DNA from: an uncultured Chloroflexia bacterium
GTDB taxonomy: Bacteria; Chloroflexota; Limnocylindria; Limnocylindrales; CSP1-4
Assembly (NCBI GenBank): GCA_963820735.1
Contig: CAWGBA010000008.1
Location: 5,326-69,325 of the forward strand
Reading direction: 5' to 3'
Length of the DNA: 64,000 nucleotides
Shown here: positions 619 to 19,048 of the stretch, piece after piece
How the letters are laid out: each line of letters opens with the position of its first letter
Numbering within the stretch: the first letter of the stretch is position 1
Notes under the pieces: model-generated
The model's input: the letters and a program-made list of their open reading frames with translations, nothing else
What the model was told of the DNA's origin: nothing
Database searches by the model: none
Program-made: the position numbers and the translations under genes

Positions 619-685
619 TCACGCCGCGTACCAAGCGAGCAGATCCACTTCGGTTATAGGCGGTTCGAGTCTGTCCGGGGCGCAC
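619..685 (+). repeat. tRNA-3'-fragment repeat copy 1 (att-like)
   Basis: TCACGCCGCGTACCAAGCGAG...GGCGG-TTCGAGT-CTGTC-CGGGGCGCAC; T-arm pairs with G:U wobbles. Confidence 0.8.
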
Positions 686-811
686 TCATGCCCCAAATAG
701 TCGCCCCTTCCCGACACGATCGGTTGGGGCGGGACGGACGCTCCTTGCCGCGGCGCGATGACCGCAGGCGCTTCGGGCCGTACCTGACGAAGAGGAACCA
801 GAGCGCACCTG

Positions 812-829
812 TGTGCTATCTTCAGCACA
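812..829. promoter_or_regulatory. Inverted repeat TGTGCT-N6-AGCACA, likely vapBC autoregulatory operator over a leaderless start
   Basis: Palindrome overlaps a TATCTT -10-like box and the ATG; no SD sequence. Confidence 0.5.
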
Positions 830-1068
830 TGCGCACGCACATTGAAATGGACGATGCCCTGATTCGGCGCATCGATGCGGTCGCCGGCCGCCGGATGCGC
901 AGCCAGTTCGTGCGCGAGGCCGTCGAGGTGGCTCTTGATCAGGCGGAGCGAACACGCCGCCTGCTCGCGTCGTCAGGTTCCATCCCCGACCAGGGCCATG
1001 CATGGGATGACGATCCTGCGGGTTGGGTTCGCGCCCAGCGTCGCGGCGATGTGCGTCGCGTCGGGTGA
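829..1068 (+). CDS. vapB: VapB-type (RHH/CopG-like) antitoxin
   Basis: MRTHIEMDDALIRRID...RSQFVREAV; GTGA overlap with the downstream PIN gene. Confidence 0.85.
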   Translation: MRTHIEMDDALIRRIDAVAGRRMRSQFVREAVEVALDQAERTRRLLASSGSIPDQGHAWDDDPAGWVRAQRRGDVRRVG

Positions 1069-1451
1069 GCCTGGTCCTCGACACGACGGTCCTGATCGAT
1101 CACCTGCGCGGGCGGTCGGCCGCCGTGCGCGTGGCCGAACTTGCCGAGGGCGGCGAGGTCCTTGCAACGACGGCGATCAATGTCGAGGAGGTCGTGCGCG
1201 GCCTCAGGCAGGAAGAGCAGGATGCCGCCGACCAGCTGTTCGTGGGCCTCATCGTGCTCCCAATCGGCCTCGAAGAGGGTCGTCGTGCTGGCACGTGGCG
1301 ACGAGAGCATGCATCGCGCGGCGTCACTCTGAGTCAGGCCGATTGCCTGATCGCCGCCGCGGTCGTATCACTCGGGGCGAGGCTGGCGACGGGAAATCCC
1401 AAGGACTTCCCGATGATCGTCGACCGCGTCGATGTCTGGCCCGTGGGCTGA
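1065..1451 (+). CDS. vapC: VapC PIN-domain toxin
   Basis: LVLDTTVLID, EEVVRG, SQADCLIAAA, LATGNPKDF acidic PIN motifs. Confidence 0.9.
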   Translation: MSLVLDTTVLIDHLRGRSAAVRVAELAEGGEVLATTAINVEEVVRGLRQEEQDAADQLFVGLIVLPIGLEEGRRAGTWRREHASRGVTLSQADCLIAAAVVSLGARLATGNPKDFPMIVDRVDVWPVG

Positions 1452-1495
1452 GCCCGTCCATGACGAGTGCCCGATCCGGTCATCAAGTCTGACGG

Positions 1496-1566
1496 CTACG
1501 CGGCGTACCAAGCGAGGGGATCGTCCTGCGCACCCCGTGGGGGTCCGAGTCCGTCCGGGGGCGCCA
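1496..1566 (+). repeat. tRNA-3'-fragment repeat copy 2
   Basis: CTACGCGGCGTACCAAGCGAGGGGATCGTCCTGCGC...TCCGAGT-CCGTC-CGGGGGC-G-CCA. Confidence 0.85.
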
Positions 1567-1617
1567 GTTCCAGCCGTTTAGAGCGTCCCGTTTCGAGTCT
1601 GCCCACAACGTACGATC

Positions 1618-2097
1618 GTGAGCATGCCAGGTGAGGCGCTTCTCTTGGGGATCGCGACGATCGCCGTCGCGGTGGCCGGGTTCACCGCCGTGACGTCTAC
1701 CCTCGTACCGGGCGGCGGCTCGTGGAGTCCGGCCATGCGCATCCGACAGCGGGCGATCGTCTCGACGAGCTTCAACGTCGTGTTCGAGAGCCTCGTGCCC
1801 TTGATCGCGTTCGAATGGCTGGGTGATGTCCATGCGGCCGTCGTCGTCGCGAGCGCCGGCGTCGCCATCTACGCGACCGGTGTCGTCGCGTATCGGGGCC
1901 GCCAGTTCGTTCGCGCGGGTGGTTACCGGACGCGCTCAAGCCTGGTGCTCTTCTCGCTTGGGCCGACGGCAACCGTGCTCTTCGCCGCGAATGCGCTGGT
2001 TTTCGCCTCGGTTGCGGTATACGCACTGGCGCTCTGTGTTCAGCTATCCGTCGCGGTGATCAGCTTTTACACGCTCGTGTCGGCTGCACAGAGCTGA
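1618..2097 (+). CDS. Hypothetical multi-pass membrane protein
   Basis: About five hydrophobic segments; start may be ATG 1624; C-terminus duplicated at 38893-39003. Confidence 0.75.
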   Translation: MSMPGEALLLGIATIAVAVAGFTAVTSTLVPGGGSWSPAMRIRQRAIVSTSFNVVFESLVPLIAFEWLGDVHAAVVVASAGVAIYATGVVAYRGRQFVRAGGYRTRSSLVLFSLGPTATVLFAANALVFASVAVYALALCVQLSVAVISFYTLVSAAQS

Positions 2098-2222
2098 CTG
2101 GATCGCACCCAACCTGCGCGCACAGGGTTCCCGGATCAACGACGAAGACCATGAAGGCCGACTGACTGCGGTCGAGCGCGGGCGAACTTGGAGTCCCAGG
2201 GTCATCTCCAAGCTCGAGCACT

Positions 2223-3518
2223 CTATTCGGTCGTCTCCGGACGAAGGGTTGTTTCGGGCGGTTCCCCTCCATGCGGCAGTGACTGACTCTCGGTTGGGGT
2301 TGGGTGCAGTTCTGCCGCCACGGTCGACCAATTGCTTCCTGTGTCGTCACTCCATTGGATGGCCAGCGGCAAGACATCAGGTCTGACGCCCAGCCACGCA
2401 CCGGTCGCAGCCTCTGATCCGATGATCCACGGCTGGGGCGTGCTCGTGAGTGGCGTCGTGGAGACGTTCCGCCACGTCTTGCCGGCGTCAAGGGTCTGGA
2501 GCAACGATCCGCCGAGGCACCAGATCAGGCCGCTCCCATCGGCGTGCATCTCGATGTCCATCGGCAGATCGGACGTCGCGAGCGTCATGTCGTCCCGGGG
2601 ATCGAGCGGCCCAACCACGGAGACCGCCTCCCATGTCGCGCCGGCGTCAGTCGTCTCCATGACCATGCGCTGTTCGACGGGAAACGAGCCGCCGACGTAG
2701 CGCTCGCACAGGACCCAGCCATGGACTGCGGATACGAAGCTGATCCCGACTGCGCGCGGATCGCCGGCAGTCGTTGGGGTGCCACACGGCATGGCAGCCG
2801 GAACCGGGTTCCACGTGTATCCACCGTCGGCGGACCGCACGATCGACGAGTAGAACTCTGGTGTCCGACGGAGCGCAAACCCATGCTCTTCGTCACCAAA
2901 CGAGATCGAAGTCAGCGCTTCAGGCGACACCTTCACCCACGAACGACCCAAATCCGCGCTTTCGAAGAGAGCCGGCCCAAGTCTCGAGCCGATGCTTCCA
3001 CCAACGGCCCACGCGTGCGAGCCGTTGATCACGAGGTCCGTGCTACGCGCGACATCGAGCGAAGCGACCGTCCAGGTGACACCATCATTCATCGTCCGCC
3101 ACACCGCAGCGTTGTTGTGGATGTTGCCGGCTACGAGTCCGTCGGCTGCGTTGAAGTACGCAATCGCAGTCGGGTCGCTTGGAAACGCGGACGGCTGGTT
3201 CGCGACGATCGCCGAAGCTACGGGACTCGCCAGATCCGACGATGGGCTCGCTACTGAGGCTGCGCGACGGTCCCCGGCCGCGAAGGCAATGGCAAGTGCG
3301 GCAGCCACGACCACGGCCGTCGCAACCAATCCAAACCTCGGGATGGTGCTGCGACTCGCGCCGCGACGAACAGGAGTTGCGACCGGCCTGGCAGAGGCGG
3401 TGACTAGTTCCGCCTCCATACGAGAGACATAGCCCGACGGAGCGGGTCCGGGATCGAGGCGAGCGTAGTAGCCGCGCAACCCGTCTTCGGTCGGTGCAAG
3501 GGGCTGGGGGTCAGTCAC
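2223..3518 (-). CDS. Anti-sigma-like membrane protein with extracellular BNR/YCF48-like (sialidase-type) repeats
   Basis: GTGA overlap with the ECF gene; short N-domain, one TM helix, repeated (T/S)xDxGxTW motifs. Confidence 0.75.
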   Translation of the reverse strand: MTDPQPLAPTEDGLRGYYARLDPGPAPSGYVSRMEAELVTASARPVATPVRRGASRSTIPRFGLVATAVVVAAALAIAFAAGDRRAASVASPSSDLASPVASAIVANQPSAFPSDPTAIAYFNAADGLVAGNIHNNAAVWRTMNDGVTWTVASLDVARSTDLVINGSHAWAVGGSIGSRLGPALFESADLGRSWVKVSPEALTSISFGDEEHGFALRRTPEFYSSIVRSADGGYTWNPVPAAMPCGTPTTAGDPRAVGISFVSAVHGWVLCERYVGGSFPVEQRMVMETTDAGATWEAVSVVGPLDPRDDMTLATSDLPMDIEMHADGSGLIWCLGGSLLQTLDAGKTWRNVSTTPLTSTPQPWIIGSEAATGAWLGVRPDVLPLAIQWSDDTGSNWSTVAAELHPTPTESQSLPHGGEPPETTLRPETTE

Positions 3519-4096
3519 GCGGGCCACACCAAGCCCTCCTCGACGCGCTGCTCGGCGGCGAGCGCGGCGTCCATGCGCCGGAGCGCGGCGTGCAGCCGGC
3601 TCTTGACCGTGCCCTGACGTAACGCAAGTCGATCGGCGATCTGCGGCACCGATAGGTCTGCGCCGTAGCGGAGCGCGAGAAGCACCTGGTCGTCGCGATG
3701 GAGACGTCCGAGGGCAGCTGCTACGGTGTCTCGAACGGGCTCCTGTCGGGCAACAGCAGGACCGTCCGGCATCGCAACGGCTGCGATCAACGGTGCTGCA
3801 CGTGGTCGGCGGCTACGTCGTCGCAGCTCATCTCTGCACACGTTCACGACGATCCTGCCGAACCAGGCGTCGATCGCTGAGACGTCACGCAGTGCACTCC
3901 GACGACTCCACGCCAGCATCGCGGCCTCCTGTACCGCATCCTCAGCCGCTTCGAGGTCGTGCAGGATCCACGTGGCAACTCGCCGGGCCTCATCCAATCG
4001 CTCGACGATCAGATGAACCATCTCCTCGTGATCGAGCGTGTGCGGATCCGCGTTCGTGCCGCCATTCGAGCCTGATTTCGTCCGCTCAACTCCCAC
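3515..4096 (-). CDS. ECF RNA polymerase sigma factor
   Basis: AAEDAVQEAAMLAW, DAWFGRIVVNVCRD, LALRQGTVKSRLHAA (regions 2 and 4); start GTG 4096 inferred from the promoter position. Confidence 0.9.
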   Translation of the reverse strand: MGVERTKSGSNGGTNADPHTLDHEEMVHLIVERLDEARRVATWILHDLEAAEDAVQEAAMLAWSRRSALRDVSAIDAWFGRIVVNVCRDELRRRSRRPRAAPLIAAVAMPDGPAVARQEPVRDTVAAALGRLHRDDQVLLALRYGADLSVPQIADRLALRQGTVKSRLHAALRRMDAALAAEQRVEEGLVWPA

Positions 4097-4104
4097 TACT
4101 GGAA

Positions 4105-4132
4105 TTGACGCTCGCGCAAGCGGCAAACGTTC
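4105..4132 (-). promoter_or_regulatory. Candidate autoregulatory ECF promoter GAACG-N17-CGTCAA
   Basis: Motif lies just upstream of the inferred GTG start. Confidence 0.45.
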
Positions 4133-4251
4133 GTTTATCGAAGCTAATGGCGAATATGGCTGCCGCCGGGTCCATGCGACGCGCCACCCGACGTCACGAG
4201 GCAATCCCGACGTTCATGCACCAACGACGTCGCTGCGTGCTGGATGCAGCC

Positions 4252-4324
4252 TCACGCCGCGTACCAGGCAAGGGGACCGTCTTGCGCATCCCTGCGGTTT
4301 GTTCGAGTCCGTCCGGGGGTGCCA
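4252..4324 (+). repeat. tRNA-3'-fragment repeat copy 3
   Basis: TCACGCCGCGTACCAGGCAAGGGGACCGTCTTGCGC...TTCGAGT-CCGTC-CGGGGGT-G-CCA. Confidence 0.85.
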
Positions 4325-4600
4325 GGCTCCCGCGGACGACGGAGAACCCCACGATCGTCGCGGGCGCTGCGGAAGCCAAAGGGATCACTGCCACGTTGTC
4401 GCCCATCGAGGAATACCAGCGTGACCTTGACAGGGGACTTCGCGCAGCGCGCACGTGCGATCGGGACTGATGGTTGAGGGACACGAGCGCTACAAGCTCG
4501 CGATCCCCGAGAGACACCTTGACCCAAGGCTGATCATCGCGTAAGCGCCGGCTGACTCCGCCGTGGACGACCGCCAGGCGAGTTGTTGAGGTGCGGTGTC

Positions 4601-5398
4601 ATGGCGCTCGATGGAACACTCCGCCGCAGCCGCAGGAACGTCCTCTCTGCGGCGGCTGCAGCCATGGTGGGAGCCGCCGCAGCCACCTTGGCCGGCGCCC
4701 AGGCGGTGCTGGCCAGCAGCGATGACGGCAAGACCATCCACGTGGGCGACAACTACCAGCACGTGCGAGCAACCACGGAACTCCACAATCGCGCGAACAA
4801 TCAGTCGGTGGTCTCGGCAGTTGCGAGCCACGGGGGAACCGCCCTGTACGGCTTCAGTGGGTACGGCGGCGGAGCGACTGGCGAGAGCACCTCGGGGACC
4901 GGTGTCTACGGGGCGAGCCAGACGGGCAGGGGCGTATACGGCTGGAGCGTCGGGGACTGTGGCGTCTTCGGCTACAGCAGCTCCAACTCTGTCCCCGCGA
5001 GTCTGGCCTGGTCCTACGGCAACAGTACCGGTGTGCAGGGCCACAGCGGCACCAGCAACGCGCCTGCAGCACCGCTCAAGACGGGCGTGTATGGCTATGC
5101 CAACCAGGACGCCACCGCGATCGGAGCGCTCGGCGAGAGCCCGGTCGGCACGGGCATCCTCGGCAACAGCACCTCGGGCACGGGCATCCTCGGTACGAGC
5201 ACCTCGGGTGCCGGGGTGCGCGGCAACAGCAGCTCGCACCGCGGCGGCATCTTCACGAGCCCCGTCGCCCAGCTGCGGCTGTACCCCGCGAGCGCCGCTA
5301 CGCATCCCTCGTCGGGCCTGGTTGGTGATCTCTTCCTGGACTCTGCCGGCAACCTCTGGCTGTGCAAGGGCACAACCACCTGGGTCAAGCTGGGATGA
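4601..5398 (+). CDS. Tat-signal Gly-rich (GVxG-repeat) secreted protein, paralog 1
   Basis: RRSRRNVL twin-Arg signal, GVYG/GILG repeats, C-terminal AQLRLYP...GDLFLD...LWLCKG...W. Confidence 0.8.
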   Translation: MALDGTLRRSRRNVLSAAAAAMVGAAAATLAGAQAVLASSDDGKTIHVGDNYQHVRATTELHNRANNQSVVSAVASHGGTALYGFSGYGGGATGESTSGTGVYGASQTGRGVYGWSVGDCGVFGYSSSNSVPASLAWSYGNSTGVQGHSGTSNAPAAPLKTGVYGYANQDATAIGALGESPVGTGILGNSTSGTGILGTSTSGAGVRGNSSSHRGGIFTSPVAQLRLYPASAATHPSSGLVGDLFLDSAGNLWLCKGTTTWVKLG

Positions 5399-5515
5399 CA
5401 ACGACGCCCTACGTGACGTGGCCATCCGCGTAGCCTTGGTGTCGTGACCCACCCGAAGGTCACGCGGTCCACCTTCAAGATCCTCAGGCCGCATGCGCAC
5501 CTGACGACATCTCAG

Positions 5516-5532
5516 TGCTATCATTGATAGCA
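5516..5532. promoter_or_regulatory. FitAB-type operator TGCTATCA-T-TGATAGCA
   Basis: Perfect 8-bp inverted repeat just upstream of the SD of the fitA-like gene; TGCTATCA is the known Neisseria FitAB half-site. Confidence 0.7.
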
Positions 5533-5544
5533 AGGAGGTTGGTC

Positions 5545-5778
5545 GTGACGAAGCAACTCGTCGTGCGCAACGTTGATGAGGGTCTCGTTCGCGCTCTCAA
5601 GCGGCGCGCTTCAAAACATGGGCGCTCGGCCGAGGCAGAGCATCGCGAGATCCTCCGCAGTGCCCTGATTGGGGACCTCGAGCGACTGTCGTTCAAAGAG
5701 GCGCTGACCTCGATGCCCGACGTGGGTCGTGATCAGGACTTCATCTTCGTCCGGGACCTGCCGCGCGACATCGCATGA
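5545..5778 (+). CDS. FitA-like RHH antitoxin
   Basis: KQLVVRNVDEGLVRALKRRASKHGRSAEAEHREIL; GGAGG SD; ATGA overlap with the toxin. Confidence 0.9.
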   Translation: MTKQLVVRNVDEGLVRALKRRASKHGRSAEAEHREILRSALIGDLERLSFKEALTSMPDVGRDQDFIFVRDLPRDIA

Positions 5779-6185
5779 GCTGGCTGCTCGACACCAACAT
5801 CGTCTCGGAGCTTCGGAAGGCCGAGCGAGCCAATCAAGGCGTCCGAGAGTGGTTCGCAGAGGTTGAAGAAGAGTCACTGTTCACGAGCGTGCTCGTGGTG
5901 GGCGAGCTTCGCCGGGGAATCGAGTCGGTCCGCCGTCGAGACGTGCCGTCCGCACTGGCTCTGGACCACTGGCTGGCCAATCTCACGGATGCGTTCGCAG
6001 ACCGCATCCTGCCGGTGGATCGGCAGGTCGCTGAGCAGTGGGGCCGTCTGAACGTTCCGAACCCAGTCCCCACCGTCGATGGCCTGCTTGCGGCGACGTC
6101 ACTCGTCCATGGCCTGACGCTCGTGACCAGGAACACTCGCGACGTGGCTCGCACCGGAGTTCCTGTGCTCGATCCAACAACCTGA
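5775..6185 (+). CDS. vapC: FitB/VapC PIN toxin
   Basis: WLLDTNIVSEL, GELRRGIE, VDGLLAAT, LTLVTRNTRD. Confidence 0.92.
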   Translation: MSWLLDTNIVSELRKAERANQGVREWFAEVEEESLFTSVLVVGELRRGIESVRRRDVPSALALDHWLANLTDAFADRILPVDRQVAEQWGRLNVPNPVPTVDGLLAATSLVHGLTLVTRNTRDVARTGVPVLDPTT

Positions 6186-6400
6186 TAGGCACAACGTTGG
6201 CGGTGACAACGAACGGAACCACGTTCGACACGTAGCTCGTTTGCCAGCTGACGCCACCTCAGGCCCCCACGGGATCAGGTGGGACATCGAGACCCCCTTC
6301 GGACCGTCCTGATCGCGACGTCATTGGTCTGCGAACTAGGCTAGTGTGCCGGGCGACGGGATCGAGCGGCACGCTCGTCCGAGGACGAGAAAGGGATCCC

Positions 6401-8200
6401 ATGGGCGCAATGCGTCACCGGTTCGGCGTTGGTTTGACCCTGATTGCTGGGGTGCTGGTGGCTGCGGCGATGACCACGTCGGCGGTCACCGCGGCGGCCA
6501 CGCCGTCCACGGTCACGACCTGGGTCGCCAGGCCCTCCTGCTCCAGGCCAGCACAAGGCCGGATGACATGCTTCGCGATGCACCTGGTTCAAAAGCGAGT
6601 GCCCGCCGCGATGGCTCGTGGCGCGAGCACACGGCGGGTGACCGCGTCGCTGCCGAAGATTGCGGTCGGACTGGGCGGTGGGTACACGCCCGGTGACCTC
6701 GCAACCGCGTACGGTGTCAACCCGAATGCTGCGACCAACCAGGTGGTTGCCATCGTCGATGCATATGACGATCCGAACGTCAGATCGGAACTGAACGCGT
6801 TCAATAGCCACTACGGGTTGCCGCCCGAAACGGCGAGCTCTTTCAGGGTCGTCAACCAGTTGGGTGGCACGCAGCTTTCGGCGACGCCGGATAGTGGCTG
6901 GGCTGCCGAGATTGCGCTTGACGCTCAGGCGGTCCGAGGCCTCTGCCACAAGTGCAGGATCGTTGTCGTCGAGGCAGACGATTCCGACTCAACGAATCTC
7001 GGGACCGCGGTGAGCACGGCAGCAACGACCATACACGCGAACATCATCACCAACTCGTACGGCGGTAGCGGCATCGACCCTGCCGACCAGGCCAAATACG
7101 ACCACCCGGGCGTCGCGATCCTCGCCTCCACCGGGGACGACGGTTGGTACGACTATGACCAGATCAACCCTGGAGATCACTCGGGCCGCGGTCCGGGCGC
7201 CCCGGAGGTCCCGGCAGCGCTGAGCACGGTCATAGCCGTCGGCGGCACTTCCCTGTATTTGAATGACGACGCGACACGGTTGCGTGAAGACGTATGGAAT
7301 TCGAACGGCCCGAAGGACTACTACGGTTTTGTCGCAGGGTTGACGGGTGCCACGGGTGGCGGCTGCAGCTCGGACTATGCCGCGCCGGGCTGGCAGAAGA
7401 GTGTTGCCGGATACAGCACGCTGGGCTGCGCGACCGGCAAGCGGTCCGCCACCGACATTGCTGCCATCGGGGACCCGTTCACGGGTTTCGACATCTACCG
7501 CAGCTACGGCGTCAACACACCGGGATGGTCGACCTACGGCGGGACATCTTTGGCATCGCCGGTGGTCGCGGCGCTCTGGGCGCTTGCCGGGGGACCTGGT
7601 GCCGTCAAGTATCCAGCCCTTTCCCTGTACGGCCACTTCAAGTCGGACACGACCAGGCATCTGTTCGACGTCGCGTTCGGCGGGAATGGGCTATGCGACA
7701 CGGCAGGGACGGCTTCGTGCGCCGGAAACTGGGCCGGCGTAACCGGCAATCCAAACGTCGACACTGGATTTGGACCGGTCGACTGCGCGTGGGATTTCAC
7801 AACGCCCGGTCCGGTAACGCCACTCATCAATCGCAGCCAGTGCTACGCGAAGGCCGGCTATGACGGCCCATCGGGGGTTGGTGCGCCGATCGGCCTGAAT
7901 GCCTTCACGCCGTTGTTCCCGACCGTCGTGATCAAGCCGCCTGCCACGATGACGCACAACGTGTCCGCCACCTTCTCAGGCGCCGGTTCGAGCGATCCAT
8001 TTCCCGGCGGCGTCCTGACGCCAGGCGCGACAAACGTGCAGTACCGCTGGAACTGGGGCGACGGGCACGTCGACACCATCACCAACAGCACGTCCGCGAC
8101 GCACAGATATACGGCCCCCGGTCGGAAGACGATCACGCTGTCCATCACCGACAACTACGGTCAGGTCGGACGAAAGCAACTCGTCGTCACGATCCATTGA
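6401..8200 (+). CDS. Secreted S53/S8 subtilase-family protease with C-terminal PKD domain
   Basis: Signal peptide; EIALDAQAV, ASTGDDG, GGTSLASP; WNWGDG...HRYTAPG PKD motif. Confidence 0.85.
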   Translation: MGAMRHRFGVGLTLIAGVLVAAAMTTSAVTAAATPSTVTTWVARPSCSRPAQGRMTCFAMHLVQKRVPAAMARGASTRRVTASLPKIAVGLGGGYTPGDLATAYGVNPNAATNQVVAIVDAYDDPNVRSELNAFNSHYGLPPETASSFRVVNQLGGTQLSATPDSGWAAEIALDAQAVRGLCHKCRIVVVEADDSDSTNLGTAVSTAATTIHANIITNSYGGSGIDPADQAKYDHPGVAILASTGDDGWYDYDQINPGDHSGRGPGAPEVPAALSTVIAVGGTSLYLNDDATRLREDVWNSNGPKDYYGFVAGLTGATGGGCSSDYAAPGWQKSVAGYSTLGCATGKRSATDIAAIGDPFTGFDIYRSYGVNTPGWSTYGGTSLASPVVAALWALAGGPGAVKYPALSLYGHFKSDTTRHLFDVAFGGNGLCDTAGTASCAGNWAGVTGNPNVDTGFGPVDCAWDFTTPGPVTPLINRSQCYAKAGYDGPSGVGAPIGLNAFTPLFPTVVIKPPATMTHNVSATFSGAGSSDPFPGGVLTPGATNVQYRWNWGDGHVDTITNSTSATHRYTAPGRKTITLSITDNYGQVGRKQLVVTIH

Positions 8201-8261
8201 GCGAGTCGTCATCCCGACGCGCTGCATCGCCCGCATCAGACAGCGGACTGCACGGCGCCGG

Positions 8262-10188: not shown

Positions 10189-10476
10189 GGGAGTGCTCCT
10201 TTCACAAGCTGAAGATGCGGATTACGGTCCCAAGCACACGGCTGCCGCCTGCGTGCCGTATCGCGGGCTGTTCCCGCCCCAAAGTTCAAGATCCGCTGGC
10301 GTCCTGGCAGTGGTAGCGCTCGCGGGCAGCTCCACGCCGAGGCGTCGGTCCCGTGACGCCCCTATTACCGGCGGAGTTGATGGGTTGCTACTGCCTATCG
10401 CTGGCGAAGACGCGCGGTGGCTGCCTTGTTAGCAGGACGACGGTGGCGATCGCCCCACGATTGACGGATGTCGCAT

Positions 10477-11598: not shown

Positions 11599-11601
11599 CT
11601 A
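11381..11601. repeat. 221-bp near-identical duplication (other copy 12773-12993)
   Basis: Three mismatches by my reading; covers the start, signal peptide and linker of two paralogs. Confidence 0.9.
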
Positions 11602-11754
11602 TCGAACCTCCCGTTGCAGTGTTGGGCGGGCACGAGTCCGCCACTGGTGCTCCTGTGTGTTGCCCATGGCAGCTCGGACGATGCGTCCCGACGACGTTGC
11701 GAGCGGCTCTCCGAGTGGTTCGAGGGCCGCTGCCGGCGTGATGTCCATGGCTAC

Positions 11755-11781
11755 CAGATGCCCAATGGCAGGCTGCGGTTC
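11755..11781 (-). promoter_or_regulatory. Candidate ECF promoter GAACC-N16-CATCTG
   Basis: Same motif as 376-402 within a homologous leader. Confidence 0.4.
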
Positions 11782-11808
11782 AGCAAGGCGCACAGATGGA
11801 ACGTGCAT

Positions 11809-12990: not shown

Positions 12991-12993
12991 CTA
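12773..12993. repeat. 221-bp near-identical duplication (other copy 11381-11601)
   Basis: Direct sequence comparison. Confidence 0.9.
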
Positions 12994-13049
12994 CTGAGCC
13001 TCCAATTCCAGTGTGTAGGGCCGATCCCAGGCCAGCGACTCGTACTGGT

Positions 13050-14147
13050 TCATTGCAGCGAGACCCGAACCACATACGGCTTATCGCCCGCAGCGACCCA
13101 CACGGAGCCACCCGCCACGACCAGGTTGCCGTCGCCCCCTGTATCGAGGTGCTGGACGATGTCGCCCGTGGCGGCATCGATCTGGGTCAACCCGTTCCCG
13201 GACACCCAGACGGATCCGAGGCCGACGGCCAGGCCGCCGACTCCCGGGGTATCAAGCTCTACGGTGGTGATGACCTTGCCCGAGACCGGGTCGATTCGCA
13301 TGACCTGCGACCGTCCGCCTGGTCCGCCGTCGACCGCAACCCAGACCTCCGTGCCGTCGCTCGCTACCCAGCCTTCCAGTGGCACCAGCAGGCCGACAGT
13401 GTTGGTCGCAGCGTCGACCCGCACGATGGATTTGATGTTCTGGATGTCCACCCAGACACCGCCGGGTCCAGCGGTCAGGATCTGCGGTCCTGCGGATCCG
13501 GTGGGACCGACCGGGATCGTCGCGATGACCGTGTTGGTCGCGGGATCGAGGCGCGTGACCGCTCCAATGTGCTCGTCGGCGATCCACACGGAGCCATCGG
13601 TCACGGCGATGCCCGTCGGTGCGGATCCCGATGCGAGCGGGATCGTCGCAACGACCTTGTCGGCCTCAGGATCGATCCTCACAAGCGTGTCGCGGTCGTA
13701 GTCCGTCTGCCAGACAGCGCCGGCCCCGGCCGCGTCGTAGCCCCACTGCTGGTACATCAAGGGGACCGTTCCGGTGACGGCGGACGTCGCCAGGTTCACC
13801 CGCACCAGGCTCGTAGGTTGGTGGACCCAGAGCGACTGGTCGTCGGCCGCGAACCAGGCTGTTGACACGGAGCTGCCGAGTGGGATCCGGCTGTCTATCA
13901 ATCGCGGGATGCGGTACTGGGCACCCACGAACATCGCGGCAAGCGCTGCAGCGAGTAGCAGCGCAAGCAGGACGGCGAAAGGCACAGCCGGCCGGAAGCC
14001 AGGCAGAACCAGCCAGCGGCGCTTCGGCTTGCCTGCCAGCGCAATGGTTCGTGCGGCGGCCAGGACGTCGTCGGGCAGGCGGAGCGATTCCGACGGTCGC
14101 AATGCGGCGATCAGCTCGTCGTCGGTGATGGGACGCGTCGAGGTCAT
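13050..14147 (-). CDS. Anti-sigma-like membrane protein with extracellular Vgb/YncE-like propeller
   Basis: ATGA overlap with the ECF gene; N-domain, TM helix, GAGAVW/GSVW/RIDP repeats. Confidence 0.8.
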   Translation of the reverse strand: MTSTRPITDDELIAALRPSESLRLPDDVLAAARTIALAGKPKRRWLVLPGFRPAVPFAVLLALLLAAALAAMFVGAQYRIPRLIDSRIPLGSSVSTAWFAADDQSLWVHQPTSLVRVNLATSAVTGTVPLMYQQWGYDAAGAGAVWQTDYDRDTLVRIDPEADKVVATIPLASGSAPTGIAVTDGSVWIADEHIGAVTRLDPATNTVIATIPVGPTGSAGPQILTAGPGGVWVDIQNIKSIVRVDAATNTVGLLVPLEGWVASDGTEVWVAVDGGPGGRSQVMRIDPVSGKVITTVELDTPGVGGLAVGLGSVWVSGNGLTQIDAATGDIVQHLDTGGDGNLVVAGGSVWVAAGDKPYVVRVSLQ

Positions 14148-14755
14148 CGTTCTTCCTGCTCGAGTGCCCGCTGCAAGCGCTCGCGGGCGGTGTGGAGGCG
14201 ACGCTTCACGGTTCCTTCGGGGATCCGGAGCGCCACGGCCAGATCGGCGACGGACCGGGACTCCAGGTGGTGGAGGACGATCAATGAGCGGTCGTCGATC
14301 GACAGTCGACGGAAGGCCGCGACGATCAGCGCGGTTCGATCGTCACGCGACCCGTGGTCCGCGGCGGGAAGTCCCACCCACTCGCTGCTCGTTGGTTCGA
14401 GCACGGGTCGGATCTCCCGCACCTGTCGTCGTCTGCGGCGCCGGAGTTGATCGCGGCAGACGTTGACCAGGATCCGGTCCAGCCACGCGTCGAAGCTGCC
14501 TGAGGTCTGAAGGCGAGGGAGTTCGCGCCAGGCGCGGATCAGTGCCTCCTGGGCCGCATCGCGGGCATCCGGCTCGTCGCGCAGGATGGTGTACGCACGG
14601 CGGTACAGCCCATCACCAATGCGATCGGCTAGGGCATCGAAGGCTCGGGGATCGCCGCTGACGGCGAGCGCGACCAAGCTCGTAACGACCGACTCGTTCG
14701 AGCCTTCGAACGCCGTCGCGCCCTGGGTCATCGCCACTCCTGCATCGCGGGCCAT
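14144..14755 (-). CDS. ECF sigma factor
   Basis: DARDAAQEALIRAWRELP, AWLDRILVNVCRD, IPEGTVKRRLH. Confidence 0.92.
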   Translation of the reverse strand: MARDAGVAMTQGATAFEGSNESVVTSLVALAVSGDPRAFDALADRIGDGLYRRAYTILRDEPDARDAAQEALIRAWRELPRLQTSGSFDAWLDRILVNVCRDQLRRRRRRQVREIRPVLEPTSSEWVGLPAADHGSRDDRTALIVAAFRRLSIDDRSLIVLHHLESRSVADLAVALRIPEGTVKRRLHTARERLQRALEQEER

Positions 14756-14765
14756 CCTGAACTGT

Positions 14766-14792
14766 CTGACGACGGCCAAAGCCCTCGGGTTC
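14766..14792 (-). promoter_or_regulatory. Candidate ECF promoter GAACC-N16-CGTCAG
   Basis: About 10 nt upstream of ATG 14755. Confidence 0.5.
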
Positions 14793-14874
14793 GGTTGATC
14801 TCAACGCGGGCACAGCGACGTCCGTGGGAATCTGCCTTGGGCGCCACGAGACGAGCCTTGCCGCGCGCCCTTGG

Positions 14875-16152
14875 TCAGGCCTGCTCGCTCCTCCCGGCCG
14901 CTTCCTCGCGCGAGGCGGCCGATGCCTCCTTGACGTCAGATTGTCCCGGTGCGGCAGCCCTTGTCGGGTCGGCGTCGTGGGCAAGCTCGGCAAGCCACGC
15001 CTGGAACGGGTCCGGGCGAAGGCTGTCGGCCACGAACCGAGCGTGGCTGAGCAGTCCGCTCGCCTCGCGCCGGTAGGAGCGGGCGGCCATCTCATCGAGT
15101 CGGCTCTCGATGAGCGCCAGTTGCTCGTCCAGCACCTCGCGGGCGGACCGGCCGTCGAGCACGGGCTCGGAAGCAAGTTCAGACGGTAGCGCGATGTAGT
15201 GCTCCAGGGCACCTGGCAGGTACTTGATGCAGATCTGGCGCAGCAGCCACGTCTCGTGGTCGACCAGGTTGAGCGGCGCGTCGGTCGTCGGCAGAGCGAG
15301 CGCGGCCGTGTCGCGAATGCGCCGCAGTGTTGCCATGTCGGTCTCCGGCACCCACCCGCTCACGTTCGCGACGAGGCGATCGAGCACGGCCAGGACCTCG
15401 GAGCGGGTTCGTGGGTCGCCGTCCTCGATGAGCCTCGGCCGTTGGATGGTGGGTGTCGCCGTTACCGCCGGATTCGCAACGGCCGGGACAAGCTGCCCAA
15501 TGGCGGCCTCGCGAGCCATCGCGGGATCTGGAGGATGTTCGGTCGAGGAGAGGCTGGCGCGCGCGAGCTCGAGCTGGATCCGGCTTGCCTTGCGGCTGCG
15601 GTCCGTTACTCGGACTCGGTCCCCAAGCGAGCCACCGGCAATGAGGATCGCCAGCGGAACCGCAACGCCCAGCCAGCCAAACCCGCCGATCATCATCATC
15701 CCGAGCGCCACGATTCCCGCAAGGATGACTCCGCCGACCCGGACGAACGACGCGCCGGACGAACCAGGTTCCACCCGGCCGGCCAGCTTTAGCGCCTCTT
15801 CACGCGTCGGCGGCGAGACGTCCACCGGACGCCCCGCACGGGCTGTGACGACCGCGTGCTCGAGCTCCCGCATTCGCGCTTTCGCCGCAAGCCTCTCGCG
15901 GGCCTCGTCGGCCGCGACGGACACCGCCGTCAATGCCGCCGTCGCGGCGTCGCCCGCAGCTTCCATGAGTTGGTGGGTTCCCGACTGCTGACCTGCTGCC
16001 CGTCGCTGCGCCTCATGGACGCGCCGCGCTGCTCGGTCCGCTCGGCGGGCGGCGCGATCGGCTCGCTCTCGGGCCTTGCGGACCTCACGGGTTTCGAACG
16101 GTTCGCTCGGCGGCTGGAGCGGCTGCGGGTTCACGGCGTCAACTTGCGCCAT
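14875..16152 (-). CDS. Hypothetical membrane protein with coiled-coil N-terminus and XpaC-like C-terminal region
   Basis: Two TM helices; YLPGALEHYIALP...LDEQLALIESRL resembles XpaC-like domains. Confidence 0.65.
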   Translation of the reverse strand: MAQVDAVNPQPLQPPSEPFETREVRKARERADRAARRADRAARRVHEAQRRAAGQQSGTHQLMEAAGDAATAALTAVSVAADEARERLAAKARMRELEHAVVTARAGRPVDVSPPTREEALKLAGRVEPGSSGASFVRVGGVILAGIVALGMMMIGGFGWLGVAVPLAILIAGGSLGDRVRVTDRSRKASRIQLELARASLSSTEHPPDPAMAREAAIGQLVPAVANPAVTATPTIQRPRLIEDGDPRTRSEVLAVLDRLVANVSGWVPETDMATLRRIRDTAALALPTTDAPLNLVDHETWLLRQICIKYLPGALEHYIALPSELASEPVLDGRSAREVLDEQLALIESRLDEMAARSYRREASGLLSHARFVADSLRPDPFQAWLAELAHDADPTRAAAPGQSDVKEASAASREEAAGRSEQA

Positions 16153-16181
16153 GTTGGGTAACGGCGCAACAAGCCGGCAGG

Positions 16182-16319
16182 ATGGAGCGAAGGCGTCGCC
16201 TCCCCGTGAATGACATCTGGATTGCCGCCGTCACGTTGGAGACCGGTGGCACGCTGCTTACGTTCGACACGGAGTTTCGCCAGGTTCAGGGATTGGGTGC
16301 CTCAATCCTGGTTCCGTAG
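16182..16319 (+). pseudogene. vapC: Truncated VapC PIN toxin (C-terminal ~45 aa only)
   Basis: LPVNDIWIAAVTLETGGTLLTFDTEFRQVQGL matches the PIN C-terminal half; N-terminus and antitoxin are missing. Confidence 0.8.
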
Positions 16320-16374
16320 CTTTCCGGCCTCACCCAAGCGATGTGGCGAATCGCTGCAGCTGCGGGATGCCAAC

Positions 16375-16448
16375 CTACGCCGCGTAACAGGCGAGGGGAT
16401 CGTCCTGCGCGCCGCCCGGCGACGGTTCGAGTCCGTCCGGGGACGCCA
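16375..16448 (+). repeat. tRNA-3'-fragment repeat copy 4 (best-preserved T-arm)
   Basis: GACGG-TTCGAGT-CCGTC perfect T-arm, then CGGGGAC-G-CCA. Confidence 0.9.
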
Positions 16449-16635
16449 GTCGAATGCGCAGACTGCTTCAGCGGGTGCGCAAGCAGCGCTCAAGGTCGCG
16501 GCGCGGGACGATACCGAGGACGAGGATCGTGCGGTCCTCCGCGATGACGTCGTTGACTTCGGAACCGCCCGAGGTTGACCGGTCCCATAGGTTGTGAGCG
16601 CGGCCAGATGGGTCGCGCCGATGCTGAGGGCCCCG

Positions 16636-17187
16636 ATGCGACGGGATCTCGTCGAGCGAGCGATGGCGGGCGACCTGGAGGCGTTCTCGGAGCTGGCACG
16701 CCTTTCGATCGACCGGCTCTACGCCGTCGCGCGCCTGATCCTCCGCGACACCGAGAAGGCCGAAGATGCGACGCAGGAGGCACTCGTGGCTGCCTGGCGT
16801 GACATCGCGGGCCTGCGGGACCCGGACCGATTCGAACCTTGGCTTCGCCGTCTGCTCGTGCACGCCTGCTACCACGAGGCTCGCACGCACCGCCGCAGGC
16901 TGCACTACGAGGGACAGCTCAAGCCTCTTGACGAGGGCGCTCGCGACCCAGCCGTCGCATCGGCCGATCGCGATGAGCTTGAGCGAGGCTTCACCCGCCT
17001 CGCCCCCGAGCAGCGTGCCCTGATCGTGCTGCACTACTACCTGGGATTGCCGATGCAGGAGACTGCGCTGGCCCTCGGCCTGCCGGTCGGCACCGTCAAG
17101 TCCCGGTTGCACCGAACTACCCAGCAGATGCGCGCCGTCCTCGAGGCCGACGCCCGTCTGCCGCTTGCAGAGGGACGGCTGACATGA
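16636..17187 (+). CDS. ECF sigma factor
   Basis: DLVERAMAGD, AEDATQEALVAAW, LPVGTVKSRLHR; GAGGG SD. Confidence 0.93.
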   Translation: MRRDLVERAMAGDLEAFSELARLSIDRLYAVARLILRDTEKAEDATQEALVAAWRDIAGLRDPDRFEPWLRRLLVHACYHEARTHRRRLHYEGQLKPLDEGARDPAVASADRDELERGFTRLAPEQRALIVLHYYLGLPMQETALALGLPVGTVKSRLHRTTQQMRAVLEADARLPLAEGRLT

Positions 17188-18554
17188 GCCAGACCTCCGA
17201 CTTCGACAGCCTGATCACGGCCTGGCTGGACGAGCAGGCCCCCAAGCGCGCTCCCGATGCCCTCCTGGGGCGAGTCACCGAGGGTGCGACGAGAACCCGC
17301 CGTCGTCCGGCATGGGCCACCCTCGAAAGGTGGATCTCCATGGAAACACGTGCACAGCTCGGGGCGGTGCCCCGTGGCGCAATCGTGATCGCCACACTCG
17401 TGCTCCTCACTGCCATCGTTGCCTGGTCCGCGCTCGCCGCCGGCGGCCAGTCGACGCCGCCTTTAGTCCCTGTTGCGTCGCCGACGCCGAGTGTGTCGAT
17501 CGCCTCCGCGTTTCCGGGCGGGACGATCGTCTACCAGCGAACTGACCCCGATGGCGATCCGGAGACGATGTACGCCATCGCCGCCGATGGGACCGCGAAG
17601 CGGCAGCAACTCCTGACCTCGCAGCAGTTCTACTGCTGCCCGCAGCTCTCGCCCGACGGTTCGCGCATCGCGGCCTCGATCTCCGTGGGTGATCGTGTCA
17701 GCGAAGTCACCGTGAACACCGATGGCACGGACTACTCCGTCATGCCGCTCCCGGACGCGACCCTCAACCTCGCGCCGGACCTCTGGCTCAACGCGAACGA
17801 AGTCACCTTCACGGGCTGGGACGACAGCGACCCGACACGCAACGGCGTGTACGTCGCCGATCCCGCGCAGCCCGCCATGCTGCGGAGGGTTACGAGCGGT
17901 CCGAGCCTCCAGGACCAGGTGGTGGCGGTCACCGCCGACGGCTCGCGGATCGCCTTCGTCCGGGCTGCTCCCGGTGTCGACCAGGGTCCGTTGTTCACAG
18001 TGAACGCCGACGGCACGAACGTGAAGCAGGTCAGCCCGACCGAGGCGCTCGTATCTGGGTCGGGAGGCTGGGGCGGCAGCACCGCGACCTGGTCGCCGGA
18101 CGGGAGCCAGCTGACCTTCGCGGCTACCGTCGGCGGCTGCGCTTGCGCCGTCTATGTCGTCGATGCCGATGGTGCGGACCCGCGACAGATCTTCGACAAA
18201 TCGGGGCAAAACATCTTCGGTGCGCACTGGTCGCCCGACGGGCAGTGGATCGCCTTTGAGTCAGTACCCGACGGATCGGCACCGCGCAACGGGCCGAACG
18301 ACCAAGTCATGCTCATCCACCCCGATGGCACCGGCCTCAAGGCGATTACCGGCGACAAGACGCTGAGCGGATCGTGGAGCCCGCAATGGTCGCCTGACGG
18401 CAGCTGGCTGGTCTTCCAGAGCAGTGACCGCGACGGCAGCCACGCCGACCTGTGGACCTCGAACGCCGACGGCTCCGACCCCATGCAGCTCACGCACGAC
18501 CCGGGCCGCTACGACACCTACACCTGGACGTCGTGGTCGCCTCCGGCGAACTGA
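17184..18554 (+). CDS. Anti-sigma-like membrane protein with extracellular TolB/PD40 propeller
   Basis: ATGA overlap; FDSLITAWLDEQAP N-domain, TM helix, WSPDG repeats. Confidence 0.85.
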   Translation: MSQTSDFDSLITAWLDEQAPKRAPDALLGRVTEGATRTRRRPAWATLERWISMETRAQLGAVPRGAIVIATLVLLTAIVAWSALAAGGQSTPPLVPVASPTPSVSIASAFPGGTIVYQRTDPDGDPETMYAIAADGTAKRQQLLTSQQFYCCPQLSPDGSRIAASISVGDRVSEVTVNTDGTDYSVMPLPDATLNLAPDLWLNANEVTFTGWDDSDPTRNGVYVADPAQPAMLRRVTSGPSLQDQVVAVTADGSRIAFVRAAPGVDQGPLFTVNADGTNVKQVSPTEALVSGSGGWGGSTATWSPDGSQLTFAATVGGCACAVYVVDADGADPRQIFDKSGQNIFGAHWSPDGQWIAFESVPDGSAPRNGPNDQVMLIHPDGTGLKAITGDKTLSGSWSPQWSPDGSWLVFQSSDRDGSHADLWTSNADGSDPMQLTHDPGRYDTYTWTSWSPPAN

Positions 18555-18728
18555 CGCCATCTGCCGGTCGAGTCCCCGTGAATGAAAAAACGGTCGCCCG
18601 GCATCAGGCGGATCAAAGAGCTCCCGCCGCATCGGTGCCGCAGGTGCGGCGGGACTCGGTTCGCCACATGAACCATCTCGTGCCTATGGAAGCAGTGACG
18701 GGTCTCCGCTCTGTCGAAGCGGACGCGG

Positions 18729-18797
18729 CTACGCGGCGTACCGGCGAGCGGATCGTCCTGCGCGCCCTCTTGGGGGCTCGAGTCCGTCCGGGGACGC
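18729..18797 (+). repeat. tRNA-3'-fragment repeat copy 5
   Basis: CTACGCGGCGTACCGGCGAGCGGATCGTCCTGCGC...CTCGAGT-CCGTC-CGGGGAC-GC. Confidence 0.85.
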
Positions 18798-19048
18798 TCG
18801 CTCAGACCCGAACAAACGCTGGGAATCCGCGCCGGTGACATCGACCAATCGGCGACGGCATCGGTTCGGCCTCCCACCGGAAGGCTGCCGTCAGGGCCGA
18901 CCGAGTAAGACCTCGCTCCGCGAGCGTCGCGAGCGACGAGCGAGACGGTCGACCTGTTCGAACAGCTCATTGGGCACGGACACGGCAGTTTTCATACCGC
19001 GAGTATCACCCTACCGCAGTTCAAGCCCGGGCCGAGCCGACTTCTTCA

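Follow-up and report, generated by a model that had tools for sequence, protein, structure and literature searches.

What kind of element leaves co-oriented repeats with tRNA-like 3' ends, one after another, between small groups of genes that include no recombinase? The question arises from a 64,000-nt stretch of DNA (the window) from a Limnocylindria MAG, where five plus-strand copies had been predicted from the letters, delimiting units of 810, 2685, 12050 and 2280 bp; coordinates, strand and unit sizes all proved correct (Table 1). With a covariance model derived from the copies, the five reach 55-89 bits (E 1e-10 to 1e-18), copy 1 lowest, in keeping with its description as the most diverged, and no further copy appears in the window. 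Across the 4.23-Mb assembly (E<0.05) the model detects three more full copies, at positions 201 (u201), 881 and 3020 (u3020) of the same contig, C8, and the first 19 bases of C8 are the 3' end of another, i.e. the contig begins inside a repeat. All nine copies (eight full, one partial) are co-oriented and lie within C8:1-24125, with none at that threshold elsewhere in this 64% complete assembly; they form one array and not a genome-wide scatter. The DNA to the right of the last copy is not closed by a further detected copy.

Table 1. Repeat copies, units and genes of the array, in window coordinates
Feature	Coordinates	Strand	Description
Repeat copy 1	619..685	+	54.9 bits; most diverged; minus strand codes ...EVDLLAWYAA-stop; tRNA part retains T arm GGCGG/CTGTC, 3' end eroded (CGGGG-CGCA)
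Unit, 810 bp	686..1495	+	vapB-like antitoxin gene 829-1068 and PIN-domain VapC gene; no recombinase
VapC gene	ORF listed from 1023, end 1451	+	PF01850, E 1.7e-13
Repeat copy 2	1496..1566	+	88.8 bits; minus strand LAPPDGLGPPRGAQDDPLAWYAA-stop; 3' end ...CCGTCCGGGGGCGCCA
Unit, 2685 bp	1567..4251	both	ORF 1618-2097 (+), no family
BNR-repeat protein	2223-3527	-	overlaps ECF-type sigma 3515-4204 (-); both in 2685-bp unit
Repeat copy 3	4252..4324	+	77.5 bits; minus strand AQDGPLAWYAA-stop (TGA); acceptor strand CGGGGGT
Unit, 12050 bp	4325..16374	both	probably composite
vapBC	5515-6185	+	in 12050-bp unit
Possible decayed repeat	about 6225-6300		directly after vapC; L056 and L073 have an intact repeat there
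Subtilase-PKD	6344-8200	+	in 12050-bp unit
PD40 propeller proteins	8650-10188, 10477-11598, 11809-12990	-	in 12050-bp unit
Beta-propeller	13050-14147	-	in 12050-bp unit
ECF sigma	14144-14779	-	in 12050-bp unit
Gene of unknown function	14875-16152	-	in 12050-bp unit
Repeat copy 4	16375..16448	+	87.6 bits; minus strand AQDDPLACYAA-stop; acceptor strand CGGGGAC
Unit, 2280 bp	16449..18728	+	ECF sigma 16594-17187 and PD40-domain partner 17184-18554 (anti-sigma-like)
Repeat copy 5, last	18729..18798	+	82.5 bits; CCA lost (…GGGGACGCT)

At least eight recombinase-less units are stacked in series, each closed by a repeat and with its left end adjoining the CCA of the preceding one. Their cargo (VapBC, ParE/Phd, ECF sigma/anti-sigma pairs and peptidases over the whole array) lies on both strands, not uniformly co-oriented with the array. 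Pfam and tblastn searches bore out the view that the units hold complete toxin-antitoxin and ECF modules and no recombinase: PF00589, PF00239 and PF07508 had no match in the array, and tblastn with the large serine recombinase (LSR) described below found neither gene nor remnant in the units and gave 0 matches in the genome (assembly 64% complete). Array content differs between the relatives examined, in support of the original prediction.

In its right third the repeat consists of tRNA-Arg(CCT) 3'-end sequence, to which each copy is identical over 16-30 nt, upholding the idea of att-type junctions that carry a tRNA end; the perfect T arm GACGG/CCGTC seen in copy 4 is likewise real. Identity had been thought to start at the T loop, but the best copies match the tRNA over about 30 nt, from the T stem's 5' strand onwards. 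A Glu- or Arg-like tRNA gene had been placed upstream. It is Arg(CCT), and in relatives it is indeed upstream and co-oriented; in the array's own assembly (64% complete, the contig beginning inside a repeat) no tRNA-Arg(CCT) was found. A search of the species-genome collection for the strict pattern GCGTACCA-N20-50-CCGTCCGGGGGCGCC gave 75 stretches, by their titles nearly all from Chloroflexota, Chloroflexia or Limnocylindria/Limnocylindrales MAGs, where fewer than one was estimated by chance. In 37 of these 75 loci a tRNA-Arg(CCT) precedes the repeat by 0.5-6 kb in the same orientation; G001, G009, G014 and G027, counted apart from the 75, also have the tRNA in that orientation. In the relative G027, a true tRNA-Arg(CCT) (…GGCGGTTCGAGTCCGTCCGGGGGCGCCA) stands where our array has u3020; behind it come the DUF4760 gene also found here (82% over 512 nt) and, next, a copy of the repeat. 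Other repeat classes (class-B elements) share with the tRNA only its last 16 nt, the T loop excluded, and a repeat at tRNA-Glu(TTC) in G026 likewise has a 16-nt core in common with that tRNA; the tRNA-Glu(TTC) site of the array's own genome is empty.

Such tRNA likeness might also belong to the gene of a small structured RNA resembling a tRNA minihelix, or to a tRNA-derived dispersed repeat of MITE or SINE type. The last 40 nt would allow an acceptor/T-arm minihelix, and the T-stem pairs are compensatory between copies (GACGG/CCGTC, GGCGG/CCGTC, GCGGG/CCCGC, ACGGG/CCCGT). Shuffled sequences, however, fold with equal energies (z from -0.2 to +1.2), Rfam gives no match and ARAGORN no tRNA, copies occur solely downstream of one tRNA and never dispersed, and the variation of the left arm is periodic by codon on the opposite strand. 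We regard this reading as scarcely credible.

That codon periodicity identifies the rest of the repeat. In relatives, an LSR gene lies antisense directly after the tRNA with its end inside the tRNA, which puts attP within the LSR gene; six such genes (L035, L037, L060, L097, L098, L101) sit on the minus strand next to the tRNA, their last 11 or 34 nt falling within it, and an intact LSR ORF in G005 also has its end in the tRNA, although the distal repeat of that element was looked for and not found. The domain architecture is Resolvase, Recombinase and Zn_ribbon_recom (Pfam PF00239 at 3e-16, PF07508, PF13408), and the family profile matches SPbeta SprA and the A118 integrase most strongly, Bxb1-type and PhiC31 integrases more weakly. 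LSR elements lie between tRNA and repeat at five of these loci (all but L098), i.e. autonomous relatives share the att sites; minimal ones consist of the LSR and a sigma-like gene in 1.8-2.8 kb, and the ECF-type sigma gene of our 2685-bp unit adjoins its repeat as in those. Since tRNA and LSR are both absent from the array's own assembly, its link to them rests on the relatives.

As for the conserved left arm, it consists of the final LSR codons, displaced from their gene (...DDPLAWYAA-stop, minus strand). Over 77 distinct copies its variable columns are third codon positions, with the stop next: the Asp codon is GAC or GAT in 63, the Leu codon CTC, CTG, CTT or CTA in 71, and the Ala codon GCG, GCC, GCA or GCT in 49. 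Our own copies encode AQDDPLAWYAA and a stop; against the reference copy, their last 9 codons carry 7 synonymous and 4 non-synonymous changes. The 'YAC' of the original prediction is the stop codon of this tail on the minus strand. Two C-terminal classes occur among 109 LSR homologues: antisense tRNA-Arg tails were tagged in 27, with many more bearing tails such as CPQGDSNP, while native-type tails (DDPLAWYAA, DADALAWYAA, EDPLAWWAS) end about 15-20 as judged by eye, a strict W[YF]A pattern tagging only 3. An attP inside a coding gene and two classes of C-terminus are what an integration-dependent C-terminal switch displays.

The original prediction had instead taken the repeats for serial attR sites of islands whose tyrosine integrase crosses over in the T loop, and the whole for an integron-like array served in trans by a tyrosine recombinase. 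Co-oriented tRNA 3'-end copies around recombinase-less cargo fit that proposal, and the genome does have tyrosine recombinase genes elsewhere. Yet none (PF00589) occurs on the 161-kb contig C8, hence no IntI beside an attI, nor in the islands mapped in relatives (five of seven searched), where the nearest lies 14-39 kb away across the tRNA; the gene overlapping the tRNA there is the LSR, and the class-B core leaves the T loop outside. Nor is the left arm of arm-type or attC-like nature: it codes, on the opposite strand, for the C-terminus of the LSR. Hairpins of attC type were considered and rejected, with fold z-scores about 0 and the arm conserved as opposite-strand codons. With genes on both strands, all three integron features (IntI/attI, attC hairpins, cassette co-orientation) fail, and so does the T-loop tyrosine integrase; we consider this explanation very improbable. 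Our units do resemble integrons in being mostly small recombinase-less gene units, toxin-antitoxin modules included, each closed by one copy of the site, unlike them in lacking IntI/attI and attC hairpins, in having genes on both strands and in being anchored at a tRNA gene; they resemble cis-mobilisable elements (CIMEs) stacked by accretion more than integron cassettes.

In our preferred reading, the repeats are probably attR-type junctions of LSR elements that target the 3' end of tRNA-Arg(CCT), and the units accreted, recombinase-less, CIME-like passengers. The LSR-bearing integrative elements of Limnocylindria would each leave a ~72-nt attR-type (attP-like) junction as follows. (i) The LSR gene lies antisense to the tRNA and spans attP. 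(ii) Upon integration its last codons are read from the tRNA (...WRPRTDSNRR.. or ...APPDGLEPPTQALGR.RSIH, then a stop), and the native last 12-25 codons with their stop (...DDPLAWYAA) move to the far end of the element. (iii) There the displaced tail stands directly upstream of the copied last 16-30 nt of the tRNA, the composite being the repeat. (iv) Because each insertion would preserve the tRNA end, the gene would remain a target, and every new insertion would shift older material to the right, so that the array would be co-oriented and its newest unit adjoin the tRNA, here placed beyond the start of C8. Against this reading, canonical LSRs are not known to recombine attP with attL; repeated insertion at an occupied tRNA would need a tolerant right half-site. 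(v) A minimal LSR element docked at the tRNA would excise together with any downstream repeat, so units may be delivered, and possibly moved again, in cis; mobilisation in trans or in cis is plausible.

The same junctions could be inert: each unit might be the dead remainder of an autonomous LSR element that lost its recombinase by ordinary deletion, leaving functionless repeats and immobile units. Decay does occur, since many relatives hold decaying 3' remnants of LSR genes, and these genes are often frameshifted or cut to such remnants beside tRNA or repeat. The array has its own signs of wear, which fit inert scars: 3' ends are eroded or mutated in three of eight copies (u201, 619, 18729), a W to C change marks copy 16375, a 1-nt deletion disrupts the antisense frame of copy 18729, a decayed repeat possibly follows vapC (Table 1), and the assembly lacks any LSR. 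Random deletions, however, would be expected to cut repeats often or to leave LSR pieces. What we see is an LSR remnant after 0 of 9 copies, similarity ending at the CCA in 6 of 8 full copies, and cargo genes that begin or finish 10-150 nt from a repeat (the stop codons of ParE and DUF4760 lie 11 and 10 nt past the CCA). Compact single-gene units recur in relatives. In favour of our preferred reading, units mostly lack a recombinase: the gene for an LSR, or what is left of its 3' end, follows only 12 of 82 repeats and 11 of 29 tRNAs. We rate the scar explanation as possible but the less likely one.

Among the closest known counterparts of our array are the CIMEs and site-specific accretion of ICESt1/ICESt3 in Streptococcus thermophilus (PMC5704250). 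Like CIMEs, our units are bounded by att sites, have no recombination or transfer genes (lost or never present), line up one behind another at a single target gene's 3' end and have autonomous relatives with the same sites. Unlike those of ICESt1/ICESt3, they involve an LSR instead of a tyrosine integrase, come with no conjugation genes, are stacked at least eight deep and have an att site bearing the recombinase's own coding tail; cis-mobilisation, a property of CIMEs, is here a prediction. Of the Islander features of tRNA-targeting integrative elements (tDNA plus displaced fragment), the array shows the direct copy of the tRNA end on the distal side, but no integrase gene in each of the tandem islands. 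Prochlorococcus tycheposons, many with replication genes, carry tyrosine recombinases in 910 of 937 integrase-carrying elements and an LSR in 27 (bioRxiv 10.1101/2020.12.28.424599). In their islands too, one tRNA receives insertion after insertion while older elements move inward, partial tRNA copies form the boundaries, and degenerate elements and cargo compose the island, whereas here there are no replication genes, the LSR gene spans attP and the phylum is Chloroflexota.

With the integrases of SPbeta (SprA), A118/LI, Bxb1 and PhiC31 our LSRs share the Resolvase, Recombinase and zinc-ribbon domains and short att sites without arm sites, but unlike these phage enzymes they target a tRNA gene and have attP in their own 3' end, integration exchanging the C-terminus; their C-terminal extension (...RPFF...tail) lies outside any solved structure. 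Integrases of the SSV type have attP inside the integrase gene. In mycobacteriophage BPs, where immunity depends on integration, the split gene is the repressor, the lost tail a degradation tag and the integrase a tyrosine recombinase (PMC3694055). As in BPs and SSV-type integrases, attP lies in a coding gene and the C-termini of free and integrated forms differ; what is split here, unlike in BPs, is the gene of the serine recombinase. The tail ...LAWYAA resembles the ...ALAA end of this genome's tmRNA tag (GNRQPALALAA), and on that resemblance to ssrA-type ends might be a degron or activity switch; the tail swap may have a regulatory role.

More speculatively, and in our view rather doubtfully, the tRNA-Arg(CCT) locus of Limnocylindria might serve LSRs as a platform for gene capture. 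All 72-nt repeats would still function as attP-like sites, with no part missing. From its place at the tRNA, a minimal LSR element might use whichever repeat lies downstream for its excision, take along the recombinase-less cassettes in between (toxin-antitoxin pairs, ECF sigma/anti-sigma sensors, peptidases) to the tRNA of another cell, and later depart alone. By exchanging the ...DPLAWYAA tail for tRNA-encoded residues upon integration, the LSR would sense its own state. If true, the locus would work much as an integron does, but with another family of recombinase and with a tRNA gene as its anchor. Should the 72-nt site be enough by itself for recombination, engineering would gain compact pairs of serine-integrase sites.

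According to Islander (2015, PMC4383910), tRNA genes were not known to be targets of serine recombinases, a rule that fails for this LSR family, which targets at least tRNA-Arg(CCT) and tRNA-Glu(TTC) in Limnocylindria and, judging by protein tails, apparently several other tRNAs elsewhere. The stacked units show sensory ECF modules and toxin-antitoxin pairs gathering at one locus in organisms not yet culturable. Limnocylindria are an abundant, uncultured class of soil and freshwater. Since the LSR gene spans its own attachment site, the enzymes of the free and the integrated element differ in their C-terminus, a swap that could set the directionality or lifetime of a serine integrase without, or alongside, a directionality factor.

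The repeats on contig C8 are attR-type (attP-like) junctions, in which an arm coding for the C-terminal tail of a large serine recombinase (LSR) is joined to a copy of a tRNA 3' end. The window is C8:5326-69325. Direct sequence check located all five noted copies at their stated positions, each on the + strand (Table). Their alignment is sharply bounded, starting with (G)CTACGC or TCACGC and ending with GCCA, over a length of about 72 nt. A covariance model made from the copies was used to search the window and its own assembly (4.23 Mb) at E<0.05; it scored the window copies at 55-89 bits, added three full copies further upstream on C8, and found no others in the assembly or the remaining window. 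The repeats are thus not dispersed genome-wide, an observation that the original note had named as refuting. The contig itself begins within a copy, its first bases being the 3' end of one more, which indicates that the assembly broke inside the array; at least nine copies, all co-oriented, lie in C8:1-24125. A stretch with weak repeat likeness lies directly after vapC, at the point where the repeat is intact in the loci L056 and L073 of relatives; the stretch probably represents a decayed copy, in which case the 12-kb unit (a unit being the DNA between consecutive repeats) would be composite. In the relative G027, DNA only 3.2 kb right of the repeat is syntenic with window 48817-50639 (78.6% identity over 1.8 kb). 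Judged from this alignment, the variable region here may run well past the last detectable copy, as about 30 kb more of island with no recognisable repeats.

The Arg-type tRNA predicted left of the array is supported through relatives. No tRNA was found by ARAGORN in the window, and no tRNA-Arg(CCT) in the whole assembly, which is 64% complete. Within the same genus, the weak 69-nt matches of the covariance model proved to be genuine tRNA-Arg(CCT) genes, with ...GGCGGTTCGAGTCCGTCCGGGGGCGCCA as their end. In G027 this tRNA stands where our genome has copy C8:3020; after it come the same DUF4760 gene (82% over 512 nt) and, next, a strong repeat copy. The strict pattern GCGTACCA-N20-50-CCGTCCGGGGGCGCC retrieved 75 stretches from the species-genome collection, with record titles that almost all name MAGs of Chloroflexota, Chloroflexia or 'Ca. 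Limnocylindria/Limnocylindrales'. Of these 75 loci (8 kb each), 37 have a tRNA-Arg(CCT) in the same orientation, 0.5-6 kb upstream of the repeat. In several of the 75 there are two to four repeat copies. A tRNA-Arg(TCT) on contig C10, which has CGGGGACGCCA in common with copies 4 and 5, was rejected as the anchor, being mid-contig with no repeats nearby. tmRNA or tRNA-Sec as the source of the 3' end is excluded by direct reading of the acceptor sequence. The C10 gene, called at 82 nt, has six extra bases (GGGTGC) between variable loop and T arm; copies 4 and 5 finish in exactly the sequence of its 3' end, TCCGGGGACGCCA. Another assembly break at a tRNA occurs on contig C12, which starts within a tRNA gene (reverse complement of its first 30 bases, GGGCCCGTAGCTCAGCGGCAGAGCAGGGGA).

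The left arm reads as coding sequence. In 48 distinct copies of 63 nt taken from other genomes, its variable columns recur with a spacing of three: all four bases are seen at columns 9, 12 and 15, and only G or A at column 18. Read on the minus strand, the arm gives Asp (GAC/GAT) in 63 of 77, next a variable residue, usually Pro, followed by Leu (CTC/CTG/CTT/CTA) in 71 of 77 and Ala (four codons) in 49 of 77; Trp-Tyr-Ala comes after these, with a further two to four residues before the stop. The Trp, Tyr and first Ala were set by the search pattern and carry no evidential weight. The YAC noted at the left edge in the original prediction is the antisense of this stop codon (TAG/TGA). Copies of our array encode AQDDPLAWYAA-stop, and against the reference copy their last nine codons have seven synonymous and four non-synonymous changes plus one frameshift, which hints that several related functional genes, and not one scar copied repeatedly, gave rise to them. 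ACGCSGCGT was rejected as a palindromic protein-binding site, its central S being the third position in an Ala codon. A dyad of the left-arm TTGCTTCG/CCGTTC block with GAAGAACGG (P-F-F codons) right of CCA was dropped, since it lies at no constant distance from CCA (13-33 nt). A structured RNA was likewise rejected, since neither single copies nor the alignment folded more stably than expected (z ~0), and beyond the T arm the covariation was not convincing; the window has no Rfam match. Viral contigs gave 0 matches to the full pattern and five to the tail-coding arm, which appear to be chance.

Clustering of ORFs from the 75 loci into families identified the owner of the tail, one minus-strand gene family immediately right of the tRNA, with its stop 11 or 34 nt inside the tRNA. 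Members occur in six loci (L035, with a 649-aa ORF, L101, L098, L037, L060 and L097), and their Pfam domains (Resolvase, Recombinase, Zn_ribbon_recom) are the LSR architecture. A single LSR had no match in PDB; a profile of 26 homologues matched SPbeta SprA and the A118 integrase most strongly (E ~1e-17 to 1e-23), with Bxb1-type and PhiC31 integrases weaker (E ~1e-10). The tyrosine integrase that had been proposed is not borne out, as no tyrosine recombinases lie within the islands here or in those mapped in five of the seven relatives searched; the XerC/D-like genes that relatives have as a pair, 24-80 kb upstream of the tRNA, are syntenic housekeeping genes, and an integrase beside tRNA-Asn on contig C14, tried as a model, is an unrelated tyrosine-type remnant with no tRNA overlap.

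The C-termini of integrated LSR genes are antisense-tRNA residues, ending ...WRPRTDSNRRRQP or ...LAPPDGLEPPTQALGRPRSIH at the stop, and the far-end repeat of the same element keeps the LSR frame into ...VLGERASHEDPLAWYAGVA or ...LGGSESKAPDPLAWYATA at the stop. Because the frame is shared by gene and distal repeat, recombination at the shared core would restore one ORF across attP. In G005, of the same genus, an intact LSR ORF adjoins tRNA-Arg(CCT) and ends ...APPDGFEPPTRSLGRCRSIH at the stop. A database search with the L035 enzyme returned 109 homologues, 27 of them tagged with the two tRNA-Arg tails. Several dozen others end ...CPQGDSNP, and a few have further tails such as ...DSNPRHED or ...EPPTV/L; all resemble tRNA 3' ends read in antisense. 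Native-type tails (such as ...DDPLAWYAA, ...DADALAWYAA, ...EDPLAWWAS, ...PDPLAWWVA) were counted by eye in about 15-20 of the 109, only 3 of which the strict pattern tagged. One native-tail gene, in locus L109, runs through ...TCACGCCGCGTACCAGG..., the arm that our copies also have. L109 and L110, 2.9-kb contigs with native-tail LSRs, lack a terminal overlap that would mark them as circular.

The extent of identity to the tRNA differs among elements. In class-B elements, what tRNA junction and repeat have in common is precisely the final 16 nt of the tRNA, CCGTCCGGGGGCGCCA; the identity is longer in our array, about 30 nt, with the whole T arm included. The 16-nt rule is also valid at a second target, tRNA-Glu(TTC) in the relative G026, where a repeat with the same LSR-tail arm and the last 16 nt of that tRNA (CCCCTTGGGGGCGCCA) lies 1.8 kb downstream of it, in an island of about 7 kb. 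Our own tRNA-Glu(TTC) site is empty, with the syntenic gene 1.2 kb from the tRNA, versus 8 kb in G026.

Neither a tyrosine nor a serine recombinase gene or remnant was found in the array or the whole of contig C8. Units lacking a recombinase are the usual state across the class: among 126 core sites in the 75 loci, the LSR or the codons of its ...RPFF... 3' end follow only 11 of 29 tRNAs and 12 of 82 repeats. Certain relatives carry minimal elements, 1.8-2.8 kb long; the class-B ones in L037, L060 and L097 consist of the LSR and a translationally coupled ECF-sigma-like gene upstream, which overlaps the LSR start and is homologous to the ECF sigma genes of our array. A small HTH gene takes its place in L109, where it overlaps the LSR stop. 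Either gene could act as regulator or directionality factor. Tight single-gene units were also seen in relatives, as where a protein of 1000-1200 aa in either orientation fills the entire interval from tRNA-Arg(CCT) to repeat; by eye, its homologue in L081 looks like a cyclase-ATPase-TPR regulator. Cargo is common to several genomes at differing positions: our vapBC has 76% identical DNA directly left of the repeat in L056 and L073, and the 425-aa gene left of copy 4 has a counterpart left of the repeat in L063.

Features of the array and of related loci
Feature	Location	Strand	Content
Repeat copies 1-5	window 619, 1496, 4252, 16375, 18729	+	
Further full copies	C8:201, 881, 3020		
Partial copy	C8:1-19		3' end of repeat
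Probable decayed copy	window 6225-6300		
Cargo upstream of window	C8		ParE/Phd, split M13 peptidase, DUF4760 genes, PD40 propellers
M13 peptidase	L001:1005-1829, 1798-2994 (own C8)		two overlapping ORFs (frameshift or assembly error); occupies one entire unit
Cargo within window			VapBC; ECF sigma + BNR partner; 12-kb block; ECF sigma + PD40 partner
12-kb block			VapBC, subtilase-PKD, three PD40 proteins, another ECF sigma
252-nt direct repeat, 96% identity	window 11371-11622, 12763-13014		5' ends of two adjacent PD40 propeller genes, otherwise diverged
tRNA-Arg(TCT)	L002:2096-2177 = C10:90095-90176		
Empty tRNA-Glu(TTC) site	C9:28586		
tRNA-Glu(TTC) and repeat	G026:C2 (L028:6503-6579, 8417-8488)		
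ECF-sigma-like gene (repeat-oriented coordinates)	L097:2035-2583, L037:3919-4467, L060:3815-4363		overlaps LSR start
Single-gene unit	L038:3907-7479, L058:4742-7819, L062:1281-4913	+	1000-1200-aa protein
Single-gene unit	L057:3070-6501, L089:1958-5146	-	1000-1200-aa protein

Insertion of such an element would leave the tRNA intact, so that it stays a target and older units are shifted right by new insertions. That no LSR remnant follows any of the nine copies, that similarity ends at CCA in six of eight, and that cargo genes lie 10-150 nt off together suggest that site-specific recombination, not random loss of an LSR gene, made the junctions. A minimal LSR element at the tRNA might excise with any downstream repeat, taking the intervening units along, and could later depart alone. 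Substantial weight must be given to the alternative that repeats and units are inert scars of decayed elements, with which the frequency of decaying LSR genes among relatives and the erosion of some of our copies agree, but which sits poorly with the missing remnants. The CIME/accretion model, described for tyrosine-integrase elements (PMC5704250), would fit the array. The swap of the LSR tail recalls mycobacteriophage BPs, which loses a C-terminal degradation tag on integration (PMC3694055); the tail ends ...LAWYAA, compared with ...LALAA for our genome's own tmRNA tag, and any role as degron or switch would be a guess.

Tandem arrays of elements at tRNA genes, and att-bounded units lacking a recombinase, are already known (PMC4383910, PMC5704250, bioRxiv 10.1101/2020.12.28.424599). 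According to the Islander work of 2015 (PMC4383910), no serine recombinase was known to have a tRNA gene as its target, and in the tycheposon preprint (bioRxiv 10.1101/2020.12.28.424599) LSRs form a small minority (27/937); no account was found in the literature searched of an LSR gene that contains attP at the end of a tRNA. Particular to the window, as part of a Limnocylindria genome, is the size of its recombinase-less array: at least eight units.
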